A stretch of 64,000 nt of DNA from Nitrospinota bacterium. GTDB taxonomy: Bacteria; JADFOP01. Of this stretch, positions 11,005-59,221 are shown in pieces (the stretch's first letter is position 1; every line of letters begins with the position of its first letter). The stretch is from contig JADFOP010000007.1 of assembly GCA_022562795.1 (NCBI GenBank), positions 1 to 64,000 on the forward strand, read 5' to 3'. The notes below the pieces were generated by a model, which worked only from the letters and a program-made list of their open reading frames with translations, had not been told where the DNA came from and ran no database searches. A program made the position numbers and the translations under genes.

Positions 11005-12351
11005 TCAGGCTGTCTGGCTCACCAATTCACCACCCATCTCGAAGACCGTTTGGACCTCGATGGGCGTCTCGAGCGCCCTTAGGGCCGTCTCCACGAGGCG
11101 GCGACGGAGGGCCCGCTCATCCTCCAGTGACAAGGTAGGGTCGCCCAAGGGGTGAGGGATCGCGATGGCCGGGATGATTCGGTTGGCCCCCACAGTCTTG
11201 GATATGGGAACAATGGAGACGATGTGAGCTACTGGAATCCCAATCCTTTCAATCTCTTTGACTATCGTTGCCCCGCAACGAGCGCAGGTTCCTCACGTGG
11301 AGACGAGGAGGACTGCGTCGACTTCGCCCTCCTCTAGCTCCTTGGCGATTTCCTCGCCGAAACCTTTGGCATTTTTGACCGCCGTGCCGTTGCCCACAGT
11401 GGAGTAGTAGAAAGGATGGATATCCCCGATGATGCCCTCATCCTGGAGCTGACGAATGGTATCTATCGGAAGGACTCGGTCCGGGTCTTCGTTGGCGTAC
11501 CGGTTATCGTACCCCCCGTGCACCGTCTGGTGGCTCTCGCCCGTTAGGTCGTTCACCCCATCTAGGCTGTATCGACCGAACTTCGTGGCGTTGGAAGCCT
11601 CAATACGGTCGGGGTTGCCATGAGGGACGATGCCTCCGGATGTGACCAGCGCCAGCTTGATTGTTGAAAGATCGGTGATGGCCGGTGGAGGATCAATTCG
11701 ATCGAACACAGGCATCGGGTACTCGGTGACGAACGGTTCTCCCCGCATCTTCGCCAGCAGCATATCGACCGCACGCCTCGCCCCCCGCTCGCTTCGCTGG
11801 ATGTTGACTCTCAATCCACGGGGCAGATAACCCTCTTCTTCGGGGCTTCCGAGCGACTCCCCACGGGCGAGCTTGAGCCCCAGGCGCGTCATCGTCGCCA
11901 CCGCCTCGCGCATGCCGGCGGCGGAGTCCTCCGTCGGAACGATATAAGCGCTCTTGCGGTAGAGCTCCTCCCCGGGGTTCTCCTCGTACATCCCCGTCAC
12001 CGCCGGCAGGCCCAACGATTCCACAGCCAGCTCGCAGACGGCCCCGCAGGCCACCCCATATCGGCCCGCGTTGAAGGCGGGCCCGGCGATGAGGAGGTCG
12101 GGGCGAAAGGCCTCAATCAACCCCCTCGCCTCTTCCTGGGCGGCGCAGGCATTGGCCGCAAAGTAGTCGTCGCCGCAGATAACGGTCCCGACGATCTCGG
12201 CGGCCTCTCCGAAGGCCTCCTGGAAGGCGAGGCCGGGGCCTACAAAACCATCCCTGGTAGTGAAACCGACCCCCGCCTGCTCCTCGCCGCCCAGTTGTCC
12301 GAAGAACTGATTGAGGTAGTGCACGACCCGTATTTTCGTGCTCCCGCTCAT
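11005..12351 (-). CDS. grdB: glycine-type reductase selenoprotein B (448 aa, UGA at 11293-11295 read as Sec)
   Basis: VVHYLNQFFGQLGGEE start; reading through TGA gives LVST-U-GTCARCGAT and continues in frame to GANRIIPAIAIPHPLG. Confidence 0.93.
11265..11281 (-). promoter_or_regulatory. candidate SECIS hairpin of grdB
   Basis: TCGTTGC-GGG-GCAACGA 7-bp stem starting 11 nt downstream of the UGA. Confidence 0.65.
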
Positions 12352-35906: not shown

Positions 35907-35998
35907 TGGCGGAGAGAGTGGGATTCGAACCCACGAGGGGGTTTGACCCCCCTACACGCTTTCCAGGCGTGCCCCTTCAGCCTCTCGGGCATCTCTCC
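35907..35998 (-). tRNA. tRNA-Ser(GGA)
   Basis: GGAGAGATGCCCGAG...CTGGAAA...GGTTCGAATCCC...GCCA with long variable arm. Confidence 0.96.
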
Positions 35999-36037
35999 AT
36001 GCGATCGCCATCGGCCCACCAGCGACCTAATTTCTGC

Positions 36038-36131
36038 TGGCGGAGAGTGAGGGATTCGAACCCCCGGTACCGGTCGCCCGGTACACCAGATTTCGAATCT
36101 GGCGCCTTCAACCTGACTCGGCCAACTCTCC
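36038..36131 (-). tRNA. tRNA-Ser(CGA)
   Basis: Anticodon arm CCAGA-TTCGAAA-TCTGG, long variable arm, GCCA end. Confidence 0.95.
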
Positions 36132-36144
36132 GCGGGTAATTCAA

Positions 36145-36221
36145 TGGCGCGCCCAGTAGGACTCGAACCTACGGCCTCCGGATCCGCAATCCGACGCTCT
36201 ATCCTCCTGAGCTATGGGCGC
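36145..36221 (-). tRNA. tRNA-Arg(GCG)
   Basis: GCGCCCATAGCTCAGGAGGATAGAGC, anticodon arm TCGGA-TTGCGGA-TCCGG, GCCA end. Confidence 0.93.
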
Positions 36222-36271
36222 ACCAAATGTTAAATCATTGAGCCTATCAGGAGCCGTTCTCGAATTAAGTT

Positions 36272-36362
<91 letters not shown>

Positions 36363-36385
36363 CAAACACTTTGGCGAATAGAGGG

Positions 36386-36477
36386 TGGCGGAGGGAGTAG
36401 GATTCGAACCTACGGTCCCAGTTCCCCGGGACAGCGGTTTTCAAGACCGCCGCCTTAAGCCACTCGGCCATCCCTCC
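36386..36477 (-). tRNA. tRNA-Ser(TGA)
   Basis: Anticodon arm GCGGT-CTTGAAA-ACCGC, long variable arm. Confidence 0.96.
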
Positions 36478-52980: not shown

Positions 52981-53526
52981 ATGGAGCCTATTATTTACAA
53001 ATCGGAGGTTCTCTCACCCGCGGGCGCGATACGCCTGGCATGCACCGACCGGGGGGCCTGCGCGCTGGTCCTGCCCGGGGTGGTGAATCCCAAGGAGAAG
53101 GTCGCCCGGTCGTTCGCGCTTGCTAGGCCGGGCCCGGCCGACCACCCGATCCTCCGGCCACTCATCGAGGCCTGCTCGCGCTACTTCGGCGGCGAGCCGG
53201 ATGCTCTTGAGGGCCAGCCCGTGGACTTCTCTTTCGTAACGGACTTTCAAGCCCGCGTCTTAGAGGCGGCCCGGACCATCCCTCCGGGAATGGTCCGCTC
53301 CTACGGGTGGGTCGCCCGCAAGTTGGGAAACCCTAAGTCGGCCAGGGCCGTGGGCGGGGCGCTGGCGGCGAATCCGGTTCCGCTGATCGTGCCCTGCCAC
53401 CGGGTGGTCGCGGCCAACGGCTCCCTTGGAGGTTTCACGGGAGGAATTGCGTGGAAACGCAGGCTCCTGGCGATTGAAGGAGAGATTTCCGGCCATTCTC
53501 TCAAAAAATCGCAAAAAAACCCTTGA
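52981..53526 (+). CDS. ogt: methylated-DNA--protein-cysteine methyltransferase
   Basis: ARAVG, NPVPLIVPCHRVV active site, K..LL..E. Confidence 0.93.
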   Translation: MEPIIYKSEVLSPAGAIRLACTDRGACALVLPGVVNPKEKVARSFALARPGPADHPILRPLIEACSRYFGGEPDALEGQPVDFSFVTDFQARVLEAARTIPPGMVRSYGWVARKLGNPKSARAVGGALAANPVPLIVPCHRVVAANGSLGGFTGGIAWKRRLLAIEGEISGHSLKKSQKNP

Positions 53527-53551
53527 CATTTTCCAAACATGGTTTTATATT
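53503..53551 (+). promoter_or_regulatory. strong sigma70 promoter with UP-like A-tracts
   Basis: TTGACA 53523-28, 17-nt spacer, TATATT 53546-51; predicted +1 at G53558. Confidence 0.75.
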
Positions 53552-53557
53552 GTTCTT

Positions 53558-53659
53558 GGGTCCGAAAGAGTCGAACGAACGCGCGACCTGCAAAGGGAGC
53601 GTGGCCCGGAGCAATCCGGGGCTCCTCGCAAGAGGGGTTCGGAAGGGTCTTTCGGGCCC
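53558..53659 (+). ncRNA. putative structured small RNA (four-way junction, three GCAA tetraloops)
   Basis: 12-bp terminal stem GGGTCCGAAAGA/TCTTTCGGGCCC, three GCAA-capped hairpins, dedicated promoter, no downstream + strand gene. Confidence 0.7.
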
Positions 53660-53744
53660 ACTACTTTTCCCCGATTTTCCGGGATTTTCCGAATATCCTC
53701 GCCCAACACGCCTAGAGCCACCACGACCCATCTCACTTTGGCCC

Positions 53745-54743
53745 TTAGACCGCCTCCAGGCGGCGGGCTTCAACCTGCCGCTCCAGCCATCCGAGAACCT
53801 CTCGCTCCAGCCTTAGGCCCAACATAGCATTAAGCCTGGGAATACCCCCCGGCGAGACGACGTTTACCTCGATAAGCCAGGGGCCGATGACGTCGAGGCC
53901 AATGAAGGCAAGGCCCTCCGCCGCGAGCTCGCTGGCCAACGCTTCCCATCGTCCACGAGCAGAGGTGGAGAGCTCCACTGGGGCCACCTGAGCGCCCATG
54001 GCCACGTTTGCGCGAAACTCGCCCGCCGGGGGAATCCGCCGCATGGCTCCGAGCAGGCGCCCTTCAAGACAGAGAATGCGCACATCTCCCGGCATTGGCC
54101 CGTGGACCTCCTGCTGGAGGAGCACCCCCTGCCCGGATGTCAGGCTCTCGGCCAAGGCAGGCTCAGCGGCGATGAGGCTCTCCAGGCGTGAGCGCTCGTC
54201 GGCCGGCACTCTGATGATTCCCAGACCTCCCCTCCCCTCTAGCGGCTTGACGATCAACGAGCCTGGGATCGACGAGGCCGCCTTGCCAAGCCCCTTCGCC
54301 GAGCTTACTATCGCCGATGGAGGCATCAGATGACCAAACCGCTCGACCACGTTGGCCTTCGATGCCCATCGTAGCAGGGCTCTTGGACCGTTGAGGCATG
54401 GAATCGTCCCGGCCAGGCGGGCCAGTAGCTCCGCCGCACCTCGATGAACCGGAGGGTCTTTGCGCCAAATAAGGGCGTCGAGGGTCTTTATATCTAAGGG
54501 CACGGACGGACGGCTGACCACCCGAGCCTGGAGGCGGCGCCAAAAAATCCCCAGATCGTCTGTGATGGGAAAGTCGATGTCATAGGCCAGGCCGACCAGG
54601 CCTCCTGCCTCCTCGCTGATGCTCTCGGGAGGTAGACACCATAGGCGGTGGCCCCTGAGATGGGCAGCGTGGAGAAGACAAGCGCCCGTTCTTCTATCAG
54701 CGGGAAATAGGATGGGGGAGGACATAACAACTGCGAGACGCAT
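53745..54743 (-). CDS. GshB-like ATP-grasp ligase (divergent paralog)
   Basis: WRKDPP, KPLEGRGGLG, GDVRI, FRANVAMG, GLDVIG..LIEVNVVSPGG; start set at MRLAVVM. Confidence 0.8.
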   Translation of the reverse strand: MRLAVVMSSPILFPADRRTGACLLHAAHLRGHRLWCLPPESISEEAGGLVGLAYDIDFPITDDLGIFWRRLQARVVSRPSVPLDIKTLDALIWRKDPPVHRGAAELLARLAGTIPCLNGPRALLRWASKANVVERFGHLMPPSAIVSSAKGLGKAASSIPGSLIVKPLEGRGGLGIIRVPADERSRLESLIAAEPALAESLTSGQGVLLQQEVHGPMPGDVRILCLEGRLLGAMRRIPPAGEFRANVAMGAQVAPVELSTSARGRWEALASELAAEGLAFIGLDVIGPWLIEVNVVSPGGIPRLNAMLGLRLEREVLGWLERQVEARRLEAV

Positions 54744-54917
54744 GAAAGCTCCGGCGTGATGAGCTTGAAGGCTTGGCGCAGATTGTATCAGAGGCCCCTT
54801 CTCCGCAACAAGGCGGGGATAGCCCAAGGAGGCGGGGAAATGGACACGACGGACCCCCTGCTTTATATTGGCGCTGTCGGCCCACCTCACGCATCTACGA
54901 ATAGGAGGAAACCGGGT

Positions 54918-55244
54918 ATGGCCAGACGCTCTCTCATTGCCATCATGCTCCTTGGGTTCATCGGGGCCGTTGCCGTTCCCGCAGCACAAGCCTTTGAGTG
55001 TCCCACACGCCAGAAAGAGGCCCGAAAATTTCTGTATAAAGCCCGGGCCGCATCCCGGCAAGTCACAGACCCTGCAAAGCTGGGAACGATCGAAGAGCTT
55101 CTTGAACGGGCGGAGGAAAAACTTAACCAGTCAGAGACGACCCACTACGGGGCGAAAAGCACTGCCGACCACGCAACCAGCGTTCGGCTGGCTTATGAGG
55201 CCTTAGGCGATTCTAAGGAGGCGTACTACCTGGCCACGAAGTAG
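54918..55244 (+). CDS. small secreted hypothetical protein
   Basis: AGGAGG RBS, signal peptide ending AQA, helical mature part. Confidence 0.75.
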   Translation: MARRSLIAIMLLGFIGAVAVPAAQAFECPTRQKEARKFLYKARAASRQVTDPAKLGTIEELLERAEEKLNQSETTHYGAKSTADHATSVRLAYEALGDSKEAYYLATK

Positions 55245-55264: not shown

Positions 55265-58200
55265 TTAAGGAGCCTGGCGTCGAGCCGTCTCGGTGACTTC
55301 AAGAGCCTCTTGAGCCCGCCTGTTGTATGGGTCGAGGGCAAGGGAGCGCTGGTAGGCTTCGCGGGCGGCTTCTGAATCCCCAAGCGCTTTGAGGACATCG
55401 CCGATGGCGGCATGGAGCTTAGCCTTTCTCCCAGGAGTCTCAGCCAATCCGAGGGCCGCCTTGTACAGGGTCAGGGCCCGCCGCCACTGCATGTGTTCGA
55501 CATATCGGTCCGCGACGGCGGCAAGCTGCGTGGGGCTCCGCCTGTTGATCTTGGCGTCCAGGGAAACTGAGACGTCATAGAGCTCTTCGGCCACGGGATC
55601 GGACGGCATCTCCAAAGCCAGGACAGCCTCCAGGGCCGGCAAAGCTAGAGGGCCGACTCTCTTCAGGCTCCGGGCCGCTTCGGCCCGGATTGACGGGTCG
55701 GCCTCCACAAGCCGCTCCAACAGAACAGAAACCGCACGCTCCTCCCCAATCAGCCCGAGCACCCTAACGATCTCCCGCCGCGCGAAGGGGTCCGGGTCGG
55801 CCGCATGTGCTATGAGCGCTGCAATCGCTTTAGACGATGGGTATCGCTCTAAGGCAGCGGCCGAGCTGTAGCGAACCCCAGGGTCGGGGTCGTCGAGCGC
55901 TCGGATGAAGAGATCTTCCTGGGCTCTATCAGGCCTGGCAGCATACGCGCCCAGGGCCGCCGCCCTCACCTCCGCCACCTCGTCGACGACAAGCCGAGCG
56001 AGGACGCCATCGGTCGCATCACCCCCAATCCTCCCAAGAGCTTCGGCTGTCACCCGTCGGACCTCAGCATCACCGTCGGTGGCACACATAGCCACAGAAT
56101 TCCTCGCCGCGTGGTCCGCCAGGTCACCGAGACCCTGGACGGCCTCGGCTCGGATGAGGTGGTCAGGGTCTGTCAGGAGACCCTTCAACGTCGGGATGGC
56201 CCGTCGGTCGCGAAGACGTCGGAGCGTGGCGGCCGCCTCGCGTCGGACTGAGACATCCATCCCCTGGAGGGCCTCCGTCAATACCTCTACTGAGCGGGGG
56301 CCGCTCATCCGGCCAAGGGCTTGAACCGCGGCGCTCTGGACCACCGGAGCCCCATTGGCCAGCAACCTCTGTAGCGTTTGTTGGGCCTCGGAGCTTCGCG
56401 CCCGCCCAAGCGCGATCGCCAAACCCCGCTGTTCCAAGACAGACGAGCCGTTGAGGGCATTCCCAATGGCCGCCACTGCGTCCTTCGTCCCTACCTCCCC
56501 CAGGGCCTCGGCCGCCGCCTGCCTAACCCGGAGGGACTCATCCCCCAATGCCTCCCGCAAGGGGGCAACCGCGCTGGAGGCCTTCATGGCCCCTAAGGCA
56601 TGAGCCGCTTCTGCCCTAACTGCCACATCTGAATCCTTAAGGAGACGGCTCAGGGCGGCCTGGGATTCGGGTCGAGCCAGCTTGCCCAGGGCGCGGGCCG
56701 CGAACCTCCGGACCAGACGATTCTCATCCGCGAGAGCCTTCTCAAGGGCGACTGTCGCTCCCCGACCGCCGACCTGCCCGAGCACGGTCACGACGCGAGT
56801 CCTTAGAGCCGGGGCCTCGCCGTCCATGAGGGCATCCAACGCGGGGACCACCCGGTCCCTTGGCGCCAGGGCCAGGGCTGCCGCCGCCCCGGCCTGGACC
56901 GAGGGGTCCTTATCTTTGAGGGCGGCCACCAATGGTCCAACCGCTTCAGCCCCGCCGCCACGTTGAAGCCCTACCACCGCCGCCCGCCGAACTCGAGCAT
57001 CGCGGTCCCGGAGTCCTTCAAGAAGGGCTGAGTGGGCTGCAGAATTACGGACGTAGCCGAGAACCTTCAAGGCACGCTCCCGGTCAGATGTGAAGGAGGC
57101 CTCCCGGGCCTGAGCGACCAGCTCCTCGGTCAGCTCATCCACGGTGGCACCATCGACCCCCATCGCGCTCGGAAGAAGTCGCGCCGACAGCCGTAGGTAG
57201 CGGCGGGAGGCCTTTGGGAACTCCTCGGACATGGCACGACGGAGACGGGCGAGAAGAAGATCGAAGATGATCGTCGCATCCTCAACCAGTCCCACTAGAA
57301 AGCTTGCGGCATACTGCATGGCAGGGTCATCCAGGAAGGGCGCCAGCTCTGCCTCAGCCTTCCCCTCTCGCTCGGCGCCGGGGAGACGGCGGGCCACAGC
57401 CGTCGCATGAAAGTATTCGCGGAAGGACGGCAAGAGAAAGCGCACCTGGTAGCCTGAACTCCACGAAGTCGCGGACGAATCCGCCACAATGAGGTCGGTC
57501 TGCAACAAGACCTCCATGGCCTTAGAAGCTTTTGATATTACCGACACTGAGGGCTCTTTGAGCCGACCCTTCAGGGTCTGGGCGAGGGCCGCCTCAGCCT
57601 CAAAGCGTGGGAGGGTCTCACGCCTCGGACCTATGGTTTCAGCCAGCTTGCCCAGTAGGTACTCCTTGGCCTGTGGGGACAGGGCCTCACCCTCCTCGTC
57701 CTCAGTACGAGAGGAACTCAATGCCTCGAGCGTGACGGCACGGTAGAACGATCCCAGACGATGCGGCACCGTCCGGTTACGCCGATATTGTTTGAGGAAC
57801 ATGGCCATGACGAGTGGGTTGCGAAGTGCCCGGGCAACCCGTGGAGTTCTTCGAAGATCGGCCACAACGGCGTCGGGGGCTTGAGGAATAGCATCCCGGA
57901 CCACACCAGCCAGCTCAGCTTCCTGAAACTTGGCGACCCAGACTTCCGTGAGCGGACTCAGGGATGGCCGGAGAGAGCGGCGAGCGAATTCGATCCGGTA
58001 GCCGACCCACCAGCGGTTATTTCTCCAGGATACATCGGATATCAGGGAGCGCACCGCCTCAGCGGTCCTAATCGGATCGCCGCTCGCTTCCAAGCGGGTC
58101 ACGACCAGCAGGAAGCCGCCTTCGGCAGCCCGCTGACGGACAACCCTCCCGGGAATCTCAACCCCATGGGATTGAGAGGATGCACGGAGGGTGGCCACTA

Positions 58201-59221
58201 TATGGTTGGCCAGATCGTCGGCATCCCCAACAAAATCGGCCAAGTCCACCACAACCGGAATTGTTCCGAAGCGGGGGTGGGGCCTCTTTCGTAGAGCCCT
58301 CCACGCCCAGACCTCAAGGATCACCGTCTGGAGGGCGCCATCCGAGCTCAAGAGGGCGAGGCCCGGCTTGTGCGCCATAAGGTCGCGGGCCGGAGTAGGC
58401 TGGTCATTCCACCTCACCTCGTCCTGGTGCTCCTCCAAGGAGAGATCGAGCAGACTGATACCGGGCAGGTCGGTGAATAAAGCAATCCGTTCACCCAGGC
58501 GGGCCAACTCTCCTTCCTCGTAAGCGCCGAAGGAGACCTGTTCTTCCATGAGCCGGCCGAAGGCAGGCCTAAGCCAGAATGCTTCCAGGGGATTAAAGGC
58601 GTGGATGCGGCTTAGGAAGGACTCCTCCAGGACGGCGGCGGCCTGCTGGGCCGCCTCAAACTGACGGGCGTCCAGGGCATTTACCACCGCGCGGTAGCGC
58701 AGAGCGTTGGTCCCCCACCCTCCTACAAAGACGGCCGCTATAAGCACAAACACGTACTTGAGTTTGATGACGGGGAAGAGGGTGCCGAGCAGGCCTCGGA
58801 CAGCGAGGGGAATGCCGCGGGGTAGCGACTCAGCCTTGAGCTCCGCAGCCCAGAGGTGGCGAAACCAATCGAGCAAGGATTTCCAGAAGCCCAAGATGTT
58901 CGAGCCGACCACAGCAAGCAAGCCCGTCGGCTGGCTCGGCTTAAAGACCTCCTCCCGAACCTCCTCCATACGTCGAGCGAAGGCCTCCTCGCCCTCCTCA
59001 TGATAGAGGGCTTTGAGCTCTTCTAAGAAGGAGCCTAGAGCGTTTCGCTGGGCGGGGTCGTCAGCCAGGTCGCCCAGCCCCGTAGCGGCAACCTCCTCGG
59101 CCAGGAACTTCTCCCAATTGGAGTGCGCCCACTCCCCTTTGAAGGCGACGACGAAGCCGTAGGCGGCCAGGCATACCGAGGGCCTGAATTGCGGGTCTAA
59201 AAATGCGAGGGCCTCATCCAC
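55265..59221 (-). CDS. large protein: TM segment, degenerate NACHT-like region, HEAT repeats, C-terminal TPR
   Basis: Many L.D.D..VR..AA.ALG repeats; IPVVVDL, NPLVM, F..PSFREYF NACHT-like landmarks; terminal TPR. Confidence 0.8.
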   Translation of the reverse strand: MDEALAFLDPQFRPSVCLAAYGFVVAFKGEWAHSNWEKFLAEEVAATGLGDLADDPAQRNALGSFLEELKALYHEEGEEAFARRMEEVREEVFKPSQPTGLLAVVGSNILGFWKSLLDWFRHLWAAELKAESLPRGIPLAVRGLLGTLFPVIKLKYVFVLIAAVFVGGWGTNALRYRAVVNALDARQFEAAQQAAAVLEESFLSRIHAFNPLEAFWLRPAFGRLMEEQVSFGAYEEGELARLGERIALFTDLPGISLLDLSLEEHQDEVRWNDQPTPARDLMAHKPGLALLSSDGALQTVILEVWAWRALRKRPHPRFGTIPVVVDLADFVGDADDLANHIVATLRASSQSHGVEIPGRVVRQRAAEGGFLLVVTRLEASGDPIRTAEAVRSLISDVSWRNNRWWVGYRIEFARRSLRPSLSPLTEVWVAKFQEAELAGVVRDAIPQAPDAVVADLRRTPRVARALRNPLVMAMFLKQYRRNRTVPHRLGSFYRAVTLEALSSSRTEDEEGEALSPQAKEYLLGKLAETIGPRRETLPRFEAEAALAQTLKGRLKEPSVSVISKASKAMEVLLQTDLIVADSSATSWSSGYQVRFLLPSFREYFHATAVARRLPGAEREGKAEAELAPFLDDPAMQYAASFLVGLVEDATIIFDLLLARLRRAMSEEFPKASRRYLRLSARLLPSAMGVDGATVDELTEELVAQAREASFTSDRERALKVLGYVRNSAAHSALLEGLRDRDARVRRAAVVGLQRGGGAEAVGPLVAALKDKDPSVQAGAAAALALAPRDRVVPALDALMDGEAPALRTRVVTVLGQVGGRGATVALEKALADENRLVRRFAARALGKLARPESQAALSRLLKDSDVAVRAEAAHALGAMKASSAVAPLREALGDESLRVRQAAAEALGEVGTKDAVAAIGNALNGSSVLEQRGLAIALGRARSSEAQQTLQRLLANGAPVVQSAAVQALGRMSGPRSVEVLTEALQGMDVSVRREAAATLRRLRDRRAIPTLKGLLTDPDHLIRAEAVQGLGDLADHAARNSVAMCATDGDAEVRRVTAEALGRIGGDATDGVLARLVVDEVAEVRAAALGAYAARPDRAQEDLFIRALDDPDPGVRYSSAAALERYPSSKAIAALIAHAADPDPFARREIVRVLGLIGEERAVSVLLERLVEADPSIRAEAARSLKRVGPLALPALEAVLALEMPSDPVAEELYDVSVSLDAKINRRSPTQLAAVADRYVEHMQWRRALTLYKAALGLAETPGRKAKLHAAIGDVLKALGDSEAAREAYQRSLALDPYNRRAQEALEVTETARRQAP

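Follow-up and report, generated by a model that had tools for sequence, protein, structure and literature searches.

The window analysed here, a stretch of 64,000 nucleotides (nt) of DNA from a Nitrospinota bacterium (contig JADFOP010000007.1, positions 1 to 64,000), very probably carries a real RNA gene at 53558-53660 on the + strand. The candidate RNA is 103 nt long, with position 1 at G53558 and position 103 at 53660. We lean slightly towards reading it as a genuine, independently transcribed small structured non-coding RNA (ncRNA) gene of an undescribed family found in one genus, whose product would act in trans as a protein-binding RNA. Protein binding as the mode of action is itself a tentative proposal, drawn from which parts of the RNA are conserved and which vary. 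An earlier note on this DNA had suggested an independent, unannotated structured ncRNA gene of the + strand, neither a leader nor a repeat, and all the tests run agree with that suggestion. The source genome (G000; 2.15 Mb in 84 contigs, 97.1% complete) was compared with one genome of the same genus, the only one used (G001), and with a genome of the same class (G002), among others.

The promoter, the core RNA with its helices P1 to P5, and the tail are arranged as follows:

53503-53520, + strand: two A-tracts 5' of the -35 hexamer, visible in the sequence and overlapping the 3' end of the upstream ogt-like gene; a possible UP-like element.
53523-53551, + strand: sigma-70-type promoter TTGACA-17-TATATT, scoring 11/12 in the promoter scan.
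53558-53660, + strand: core RNA, 103 nt, with a fold z-score (z) of -6.76, covariance model (CM) matches at three loci and the same architecture in RNAalifold.
53558-53569, + strand: 5' strand of P1, forming 12 base pairs (bp) with 53648-53659; 100% of the cells paired in three sequences.
53570-53579, + strand: G13, P2a (53571-53572), a 3-nt purine loop (53573-53575), P2b (53576-53578) and junction base A22; P2a and P2b 100% paired.
53580-53603, + strand: P3 hairpin with 5 bp, a 2x2 G-A/G-A loop, 3 bp and a GCAA loop; 91% paired.
53605-53620, + strand: P4 hairpin with 6 bp and a GCAA loop; 94% paired.
53624-53635, + strand: P5 hairpin with 4 bp and a GCAA loop; only one-sided stem changes among the loci.
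53636-53659, + strand: junction, followed by the 3' sides of P2b and P2a with their 3-nt purine loop, then G90 and the P1 3' strand.
53661-53672, + strand: U/C-rich tail directly after P1, the probable termination zone, common to the three loci.

The promoter and the A-tracts lie where the earlier note had placed them. The hexamers TTGACA (53523-53528) and TATATT (53546-53551) are separated by a 17-nt spacer, and the predicted start, G53558, is six bases past the -10 hexamer. A promoter scan of 53000-54200 found this single site, against a mean of 0.2 in 50 shuffles. Only 37 promoters of such quality exist in the 2.15-Mb genome, one of them 5' of a tRNA gene, and from these sites the organism appears to use a TTGACA/TATATT-type consensus. 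The promoter of the RNA is among the genome's best matches to that consensus. The A-tracts are not conserved, with one at the matching place in G001 and none at the third locus described below.

Folding of the + strand, computed on 102 nt from 53559, gave a minimum free energy of -61.1 kcal/mol, against -39.4 +/- 3.2 kcal/mol for 200 dinucleotide shuffles (z -6.76), and none of the 200 was as stable. The opposite strand reached -45.4 kcal/mol (z -3.11), with one of 200 shuffles as stable. The predicted overall architecture is a terminal helix closing a four-way junction with three hairpins. The 12-bp terminal stem and the three GCAA-capped arms described before are all present in the window sequence.

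Two relatives of the locus were found. BLAST against 41 genomes returned the source genome, G001 (77% identity over 159 nt) and a 27-nt match in G026 that covered the A-tract only and was discarded. The G001 locus is syntenic, with the ogt-like gene, the RNA and a convergent ATP-grasp gene in identical order. A covariance model built from these two sequences (R1) revealed a third, diverged full-length copy on the G001 contig C781 (59.7 bits). The CM scores at the three loci were 120.4, 101.9 and 59.7 bits, each over the full length. The rebuilt model (R2) matched three of 151 genomes at E<=0.1, namely G000, G001 and G042, and the other 148 gave no match. The G042 match (23.6 bits) lay inside the coding sequence of an ABC-transporter ATPase, had a fold z of -1.8 and was taken as a false positive. 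Scans with P1-strand patterns demanded a near-identical P1, so that distant members could escape them, and matched 13 metagenome stretches and five genome-contig stretches. All 13 of the former and three of the latter were a conserved 94-nt piece of one protein-coding gene with third-codon-position variation (the three named records belonged to Gemmatimonadales or to an unclassified bacterium); the remaining two were the two loci of G001. Viral contigs gave 0 stretches for each of two P1 patterns, under the same demand for a near-identical P1. As far as could be searched, the family is three loci in one genus. The phylum, a very small and uncultured one living in marine sediments, offered three species genomes in all for comparison. 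The P1 sequence alone is non-specific, as the 94-nt coding stretch in metagenome and Gemmatimonadales contigs matches both P1 strands.

The homolog search that had been proposed as a check therefore yielded three loci, and promoter, start and fold are conserved at all of them. The three have in common TTGACA, a spacer of 17 or 18 nt and TATATT (11/12 each), followed by a GGG start 6-7 nt past the -10 hexamer, in keeping with the predicted start of transcription at the first G of the 12-bp stem. Folded separately, the two homologs gave the same architecture (z -5.04 and -6.13), and RNAalifold on the three sequences recovered the four-way junction. Between G000 and G001 the RNA is identical in 82 of 100 aligned columns. 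The corresponding values for the flanks are 74.7% for the ogt coding sequence, 78.3% for the convergent coding sequence and 66%, with 61 gap columns, for the 3' spacer. The identity of the RNA is at least equal to that of the flanking coding DNA and well above that of the 3' spacer. The indels of the ortholog (2 nt and 1 nt) are in hairpin loops and not within one reading frame, and no coding signal was seen at the RNA. In the source genome the RNA is single-copy by BLAST and by CM, and there are two copies in G001; dispersed copies of a repeat or miniature transposon, raised beforehand as a way in which the RNA could be dismissed, were not what these searches found.

Comparison of the three loci changed the inner part of the structure. 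The inner helix TCGAAC/GTTCGG of the earlier note was paired in 88% of cells over the three homologs, and a strain variant, 53638 T>A, breaks one of its pairs. An alternative register for P2, with RNA positions 14-15 pairing with 88-89 and 19-21 with 82-84 around a 3x3 purine loop, was paired in 100% of cells. Judged from these alignments, the revised register is probably the correct one. Over the whole structure the first version was paired in 92.7% of cells and the revised one in 96.2%. The third arm of the earlier note is present as a hairpin, but its first pair, U66-G79, is kept in only one of the three homologs. The tandem G.A motif of P3 is likewise present in G000 and is not invariant, though the internal loop is purine-purine at the three loci. 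The three GCAA tetraloops hold for the G000 sequence and fail as a feature of the family, since P5 alone has a GNRA loop at every locus:

P3 apical loop: GCAA in the window, GAAA in G001, 3-5 nt and U-rich in C781.
P4 apical loop: GCAA in the window, GCGA in G001, GGGG in C781.
P5 apical loop: GCAA in the window, GAAA in G001, GUAA in C781.

The helices showed the opposite behaviour to the loops. In the revised structure 96.2% of 104 pair cells were standard pairs, against 23-58% when the partners were slid by 1-3 columns. Four pairs were altered on both sides, one each in P1 (C-G, U-A and U-G), P2a (C-G to U-A), P3 (C-G to A-U) and P4 (C-G to U-A). The sequence of P1 was near-invariant, nine of its 12 pairs being unchanged.

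A variant strain gave a further view of the same structure. It was read from contigs of three DNA runs belonging to three studies, and the reference form was present alongside. From P1 to P1 (102 nt) it differed from the reference by eight changes, four of which were in loops or junctions:

53591 C>A, with one nucleotide inserted after 53592: in the unpaired P3 loop.
53621 G>A: at an unpaired base of the junction.
53623 T>G: also in the junction, at a base that the revised model leaves unpaired.
53638 T>A: junction, unpaired in the revised model (the change that breaks a pair of the earlier inner helix).
53647 G>T: at G90, so that G13.G90 becomes the G-U pair that the C781 copy also has.
53649 C>T: 3' strand of P1, G-C to G-U.
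53658 C>T: 3' strand of P1, G-C to G-U.
53659 C>T: 3' strand of P1, G-C to G-U.

No pair of the revised model was broken by the variant strain. Read on the opposite strand, each of the three C>T changes in P1 would give a C.A mismatch, which supports an RNA read from the + strand. The same strand had been chosen in the earlier note, and the choice was sustained by the weaker fold of the - strand and by the G-U pairs and C>U changes opposite G, which fit the + strand alone. Outside P1, tail changes at 53660, 53661 and 53663 raised the U-richness. DNA assemblies from sediment and marine metagenomes contain the locus (20 rows in 8 studies; 6 of the rows may be the source sample). No RNA run was among the 24 runs listed, and one metatranscriptome, from the study of a DNA run bearing the locus, had 0 contigs over it, which counts neither for nor against transcription.

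We propose the following model for the RNA. The near-consensus sigma-70 promoter would start transcription at G53558. The 5' and 3' ends would form a rod of about 15 stacked pairs (P1 plus P2a), beyond which would lie the 3x3 purine-rich internal loop, the short P2b and the four-way junction bearing three hairpins, P3 with its purine-purine internal loop and P4 and P5 as plain hairpins. The most likely place for transcription to stop would be the U-rich run that follows P1; the RNA would then measure ~103-112 nt and have its two ends held by the helix. It would be a stable molecule that binds protein and works in trans, as a scaffold or a decoy, much as 6S, Y or signal recognition particle (SRP) RNAs do. 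Structured RNAs with a strong promoter of their own and sequestered ends usually belong to basic machinery (6S, SRP, RNase P, Y RNAs, tmRNA). This trans-acting, protein-binding reading follows from the conservation of helix geometry, P1 sequence and purine-rich internal loops next to the variability of the apical loops and junction bases. Base pairing and action in cis are disfavoured because the fold offers no conserved single-stranded seed and because two of the three loci have no co-directional gene. A base-pairing regulator, an aptamer and a ribozyme all appear to match this pattern of conservation less well than a scaffold or decoy for protein does.

Several observations weigh against this interpretation. 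The locus is known as DNA only. No partner proteins were found, and beyond the ogt-like and ATP-grasp genes at the two syntenic loci there is no consistently linked gene. The observed number of compensatory pairs was equalled in 15 of 500 column shuffles, which makes for weak statistics, and the covariation is thin, coming from three loci in two genomes of one genus, where kinship can beat shuffles without any structure. At the C781 copy the opposite strand reached a z of -6.52 against -6.13, though with less energy. In the tail, a CCCC-bearing pyrimidine stretch is conserved past the U-run and suits a base-pairing small RNA better than a simple terminator. The use of P1 as a terminator stem, finally, is unusual, since P1 closes a multi-branch structure.

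The strand values bear on the question whether there is an RNA gene at all. The DNA could instead contain a palindromic site for protein binding or recombination, or a chance GC-rich structure between convergent genes; in favour of this, the - strand also beats shuffles both here and at C781. We regard this as very improbable: only one strand accommodates the G-U pairs and the C>U changes opposite G, each of the three loci has a conserved consensus promoter positioned precisely for the 5' end of the helix, and compensatory changes occur in four helices.

The 3' end was considered separately. At all three loci a U-rich run is followed by CCCC within ~15 nt of P1. No downstream terminator hairpin was found at any of the three, the tail folding with z from -0.2 to -0.5, and the terminator scan found only the 3' strand of P1 plus the U-run. 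An alternative terminator hairpin at 53635-53659, which shares the 3' strand of P1, was not kept, having two mismatches in G001 and no pairing in C781. The U-rich tail, together with the lack of a downstream hairpin, points to a transcript end within the tail, and the closing helix P1 would itself serve as the terminator stem; the conserved CCCC past the U-run has no place in this account.

The same tail is the main support for a base-pairing small RNA, in which the pyrimidine stretch (the U-run, then CCCC or CUCC) would pair with purine-rich ribosome-binding sites and repress translation, the body acting only as a stabiliser. The U/C-rich tail with CCCC is more conserved across the three loci than a U-tract alone requires, it is predicted to be unstructured, and the RNA has its own promoter and no co-directional gene. 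We nevertheless consider such a regulator unlikely. A terminator hairpin that would protect the tail is missing at every locus, the tail sequence is loosely conserved and varies between strains at 53660, 53661 and 53663, and the elaborate conserved body would be needless for an RNA of the seed type.

The surrounding genes bear on the possibility of an element acting in cis. The immediate neighbours of the RNA are:

52981-53526, + strand: ogt-like gene (homolog of O6-methylguanine-DNA methyltransferase), upstream; PF01035, E = 2.3e-33.
53673-53698, + strand: a tandem 10-mer repeat, with further copies across the genome; it adjoins the RNA without being part of the family, and the G001 ortholog is not followed by one.
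53745-55061, - strand: glutathione-synthetase-like ATP-grasp gene, convergent, downstream; PF02955, E = 3.6e-33.

The stop codon of the ogt-like gene falls within the -35 hexamer. The next gene being convergent, the RNA element cannot be the leader of that gene, as had been argued beforehand, and the ATP-grasp gene is convergent in G001 too. A reading as riboswitch or 5' leader finds no co-directional gene adjoining the RNA, the next gene being convergent in both genomes; at the C781 copy a co-directional open reading frame (ORF) starts only ~575 nt downstream. A cis element could be a riboswitch-like aptamer or a structured transcription block, with read-through running antisense to the ATP-grasp gene or the structure insulating the convergent genes. 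The terminator-like alternative hairpin at 53635-53659 overlaps the 3' strand of P1, read-through would reach the convergent gene 85 nt downstream, and a four-way junction closed by P1 is a layout common among aptamers. The alternative hairpin is not kept in the homologs, P1 and P2a together make 14-15 very stable pairs and a poor switch, the junction nucleotides vary among loci and strains, unlike a ligand pocket, and the third copy lies in a different gene context. With no Rfam riboswitch match at E<=10 either, a cis element is improbable.

The third copy raised the further question of a small mobile or accessory element, in which the RNA would serve replication, maintenance or defence and the chromosomal copy would be domesticated or stranded. 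The G001 contig C781 (L031) is 2970 bp long and holds, besides the diverged second copy of the RNA, three copies of the lineage's dispersed repeat. Its stated coverage is 3032, against 17 for the contig of the ortholog, and its GC content 49% against 65%. The RNA copy lies beside a gene of the XRE-type helix-turn-helix (HTH) class and is flanked by the dispersed 10-mer repeats, one of which is also found just downstream of the window copy. On the other side, C781 has no terminal overlap and no match in a plasmid collection, and the two viral-contig pattern scans gave 0. No integrase, replication or reverse-transcriptase gene is present on it; Pfam named only the HTH among the three ORFs scanned, and a neighbouring 308-amino-acid (aa) ORF resembles a 2Fe-2S ferredoxin-domain protein. 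The HTH gene has a 62%-identical homolog in G000, and the shared repeats and HTH homolog show that the contig belongs to the lineage, while the chromosomal copy is syntenic in two species. An accessory element accordingly seems a poor explanation.

The repeat itself is a dispersed, intergenic tandem 10-mer with units of the GATTTTCCGC type, commonly ending in GATTTTCCGAATA, and occurs at 63 sites of G000, including window positions 53673-53698. A single 9-mer unit has 112 occurrences against ~16 expected, and several copies (on contigs C17, C33, C40, C43 and C57) have in common a longer sequence of ~40 nt ahead of the repeat. The phasing of its T-runs at 10 bp suggests bent DNA or an array of protein-binding sites. 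Its presence at 53673-53698 explains the spike in metagenome-contig depth at 53666-53693.

Known RNA families were searched with Rfam 15 (4227 models), at gathering thresholds over the window and at E<=10 over 53400-53800 (401 nt). No family matched the locus at either level, and the gathering search of the window returned only six tRNAs (54-68 bits) and one SECIS element, all elsewhere. The Rfam check suggested in the earlier note was thus negative even at the permissive threshold, in line with its failure to recognise a class: tRNA, SRP and 6S models all left the locus unmatched at E<=10. A tRNA or tRNA-like RNA was also set aside on the sizes of its helices and loops, which do not fit. The 6S reading was rejected because the locus has no RF00013 match and the canonical 6S RNA of G000 is located on C43 (C43:6771-6952, 107.1 bits); RNase P RNA and tmRNA are likewise elsewhere in the genome. 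A Y RNA was dropped because a search for the TROVE/Ro60 gene (PF05731) gave 0 candidates in G000. The parts of the literature that were available name no similar RNA.

The search for SRP components led to a second result. The genus appears to lack Ffh, FtsY and the SRP RNA, judging from homology searches and gene order. The models RF00169 and RF01854 find no SRP RNA in G000 or G001. With SRP RNAs from three other genomes (one belongs to the same class) as nhmmer queries the best E was 2; searches with loose domain IV motifs drew many chance matches and were uninformative. The Ffh M domain (PF02978) has 0 matches in G000 and none in G001. A true SRP54-type GTPase (PF00448) was likewise not found, the best matches being 33.3 and 22.3 bits in G000 and 22.8 bits in G001, and tblastn with the Ffh of G002 reached a best E of 0.29. 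The 33.3-bit match was set aside as a remnant ORF of 205 aa of the FliF-like/FlhF-like kind. This ORF, on contig C75 of G000 (L010:1492-2109, - strand), has as its sole Pfam match the SRP54-type GTPase (33.6 bits, profile 42-157) without the P-loop part. On our reading it would be a fused FliF-like/FlhF-like remnant, pointing to a flagellar gene cluster that has decayed.

The order of genes in G000 is evidence for a real loss of SRP. The same-class genome G002 encodes Ffh, FtsY and FlhF, has its SRP RNA directly upstream of dnaX, and shows the gene row upstream gene, ffh, rpsP, KH, rimM, trmD. In G000 this row is intact in the middle of a 38-kb contig minus ffh, with ~140 bp between the upstream gene and rpsP (C22:10596-10736). 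Upstream of the dnaX gene of G000 (window 35798-34347, - strand) there is no SRP RNA gene but a cluster of five tRNA genes, directly adjacent at 35907-36477 (- strand): four tRNA-Ser (GGA, CGA, GCT, TGA) and one tRNA-Arg (GCG). SecY is present in G000. Just upstream of the SRP RNA of G002 (L007:1380-1450), the DNA resembles the 3' part of another structured RNA.

Caution is called for, as similar negative results occur outside this genus. Five others of a sample of 41 genomes (G010, G016, G026, G035 and G039) have no PF00448 match at 1e-20, and an Ffh protein query finds nothing in four of these five. The closed genome G029 has one weak PF00448 match, and in 18 of 135 high-quality genomes the M-domain model finds nothing. 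Either the searches have blind spots, or SRP is lost, or diverges extremely, more often in such lineages than textbooks say. The parts of the literature that were consulted hold no report of SRP loss in such bacteria. The apparent absence of SRP may prove more consequential than the RNA itself.

The coincidence of an apparently missing SRP and an extra RNA suggested that the latter could be a relic of, or a replacement for, SRP RNA. Both genomes in which no SRP RNA was found have the present RNA, which is ~100 nt long and contains, in P3, a hairpin whose GNRA loop caps a 3-bp stem over a symmetric, purine-rich loop, the outline of SRP domain IV. Yet no SRP family matches at E<=10 in the 401-nt search, the only known partners Ffh and FtsY were themselves not found, and neither the loop nor the internal loop of P3 is conserved in sequence. 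The five other sampled genomes without strong SRP54-type matches also lack the present RNA, and so speak against any general connection of SRP loss with the RNA. A descendant of SRP RNA is for these reasons hardly to be expected. A role as the RNA subunit in a ribonucleoprotein peculiar to the lineage, one that had arisen or survived unrecognisably in a genus without canonical SRP, would be just as much of a long shot; if true, it would mean a new way of handling nascent membrane proteins or ribosomes.

Two further features of the window lie apart from the RNA. A bacterial SECIS element (SECIS_4, 46.9 bits) is located at 11255-11292 (- strand) and implies a selenoprotein gene there. At 55265-59221 (- strand) a 1318-aa protein consists almost entirely of HEAT/Armadillo-type repeats, with a C-terminal TPR.

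As a compact 103-nt RNA with a four-way junction, outside all 4227 Rfam families, the candidate would represent a new family, and one from a phylum that has hardly been studied. Its size and predicted stability suit direct structural and pull-down work. The narrow distribution and the absence of a functional lead limit its value.

Among known RNAs, 6S RNA (RF00013) is comparable as a small trans-acting RNA with its own strong promoter, ends in a long terminal helix and an action through protein binding instead of base pairing. It is ~185 nt long, however, and forms one long interrupted hairpin with a central bubble instead of a 103-nt four-way junction. The bacterial small SRP (4.5S) RNA (RF00169) has in common with the present RNA a length of ~100 nt, a GNRA-capped short-stem hairpin above a purine-rich symmetric loop and the character of a stable RNA of the housekeeping type; it differs in having only one hairpin, whose domain IV is strongly conserved in sequence, and in three other genomes it scores 74-79 bits. 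Y RNAs and YrlA, which act with Ro60 (Rsr), usually the product of a neighbouring gene, measure ~100-130 nt and likewise have their ends in a long sequence-conserved helix with a multi-branched module opposite. The 5' strand of P1 may resemble the conserved Ro-binding strand of Y RNAs. In the present case there is no TROVE/Ro60 gene in G000 and no Rfam match, P1 is unbulged, and the neighbours are ogt and the ATP-grasp gene.

The four-way junction invites other comparisons. tRNA (RF00005) also has one, closed by a helix of both ends and carrying three hairpin arms, but its closing helix has 7 bp against 12-15 here, and the present loops are all of 3-5 nt, with no 7-nt anticodon or T loop. Aptamers and ribozymes built on such junctions (the SAM-I riboswitch, the hairpin ribozyme, the four-way twister-sister) are similar in their compact P1-closed junction, and the internal loops of the adjacent arms P2 and P3 could dock on each other; unlike them, the present RNA has no family match, no co-directional gene at two of three loci, variable junction and loops, and a P1 that is too stable for a switch. 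Orphan structured bacterial ncRNAs such as raiA and OLE are alike in having a conserved secondary structure, apparent independent transcription and an unknown function. They are ~200-600 nt long and occur in hundreds to thousands of species, whereas the present RNA has 103 nt and was found in one genus only.

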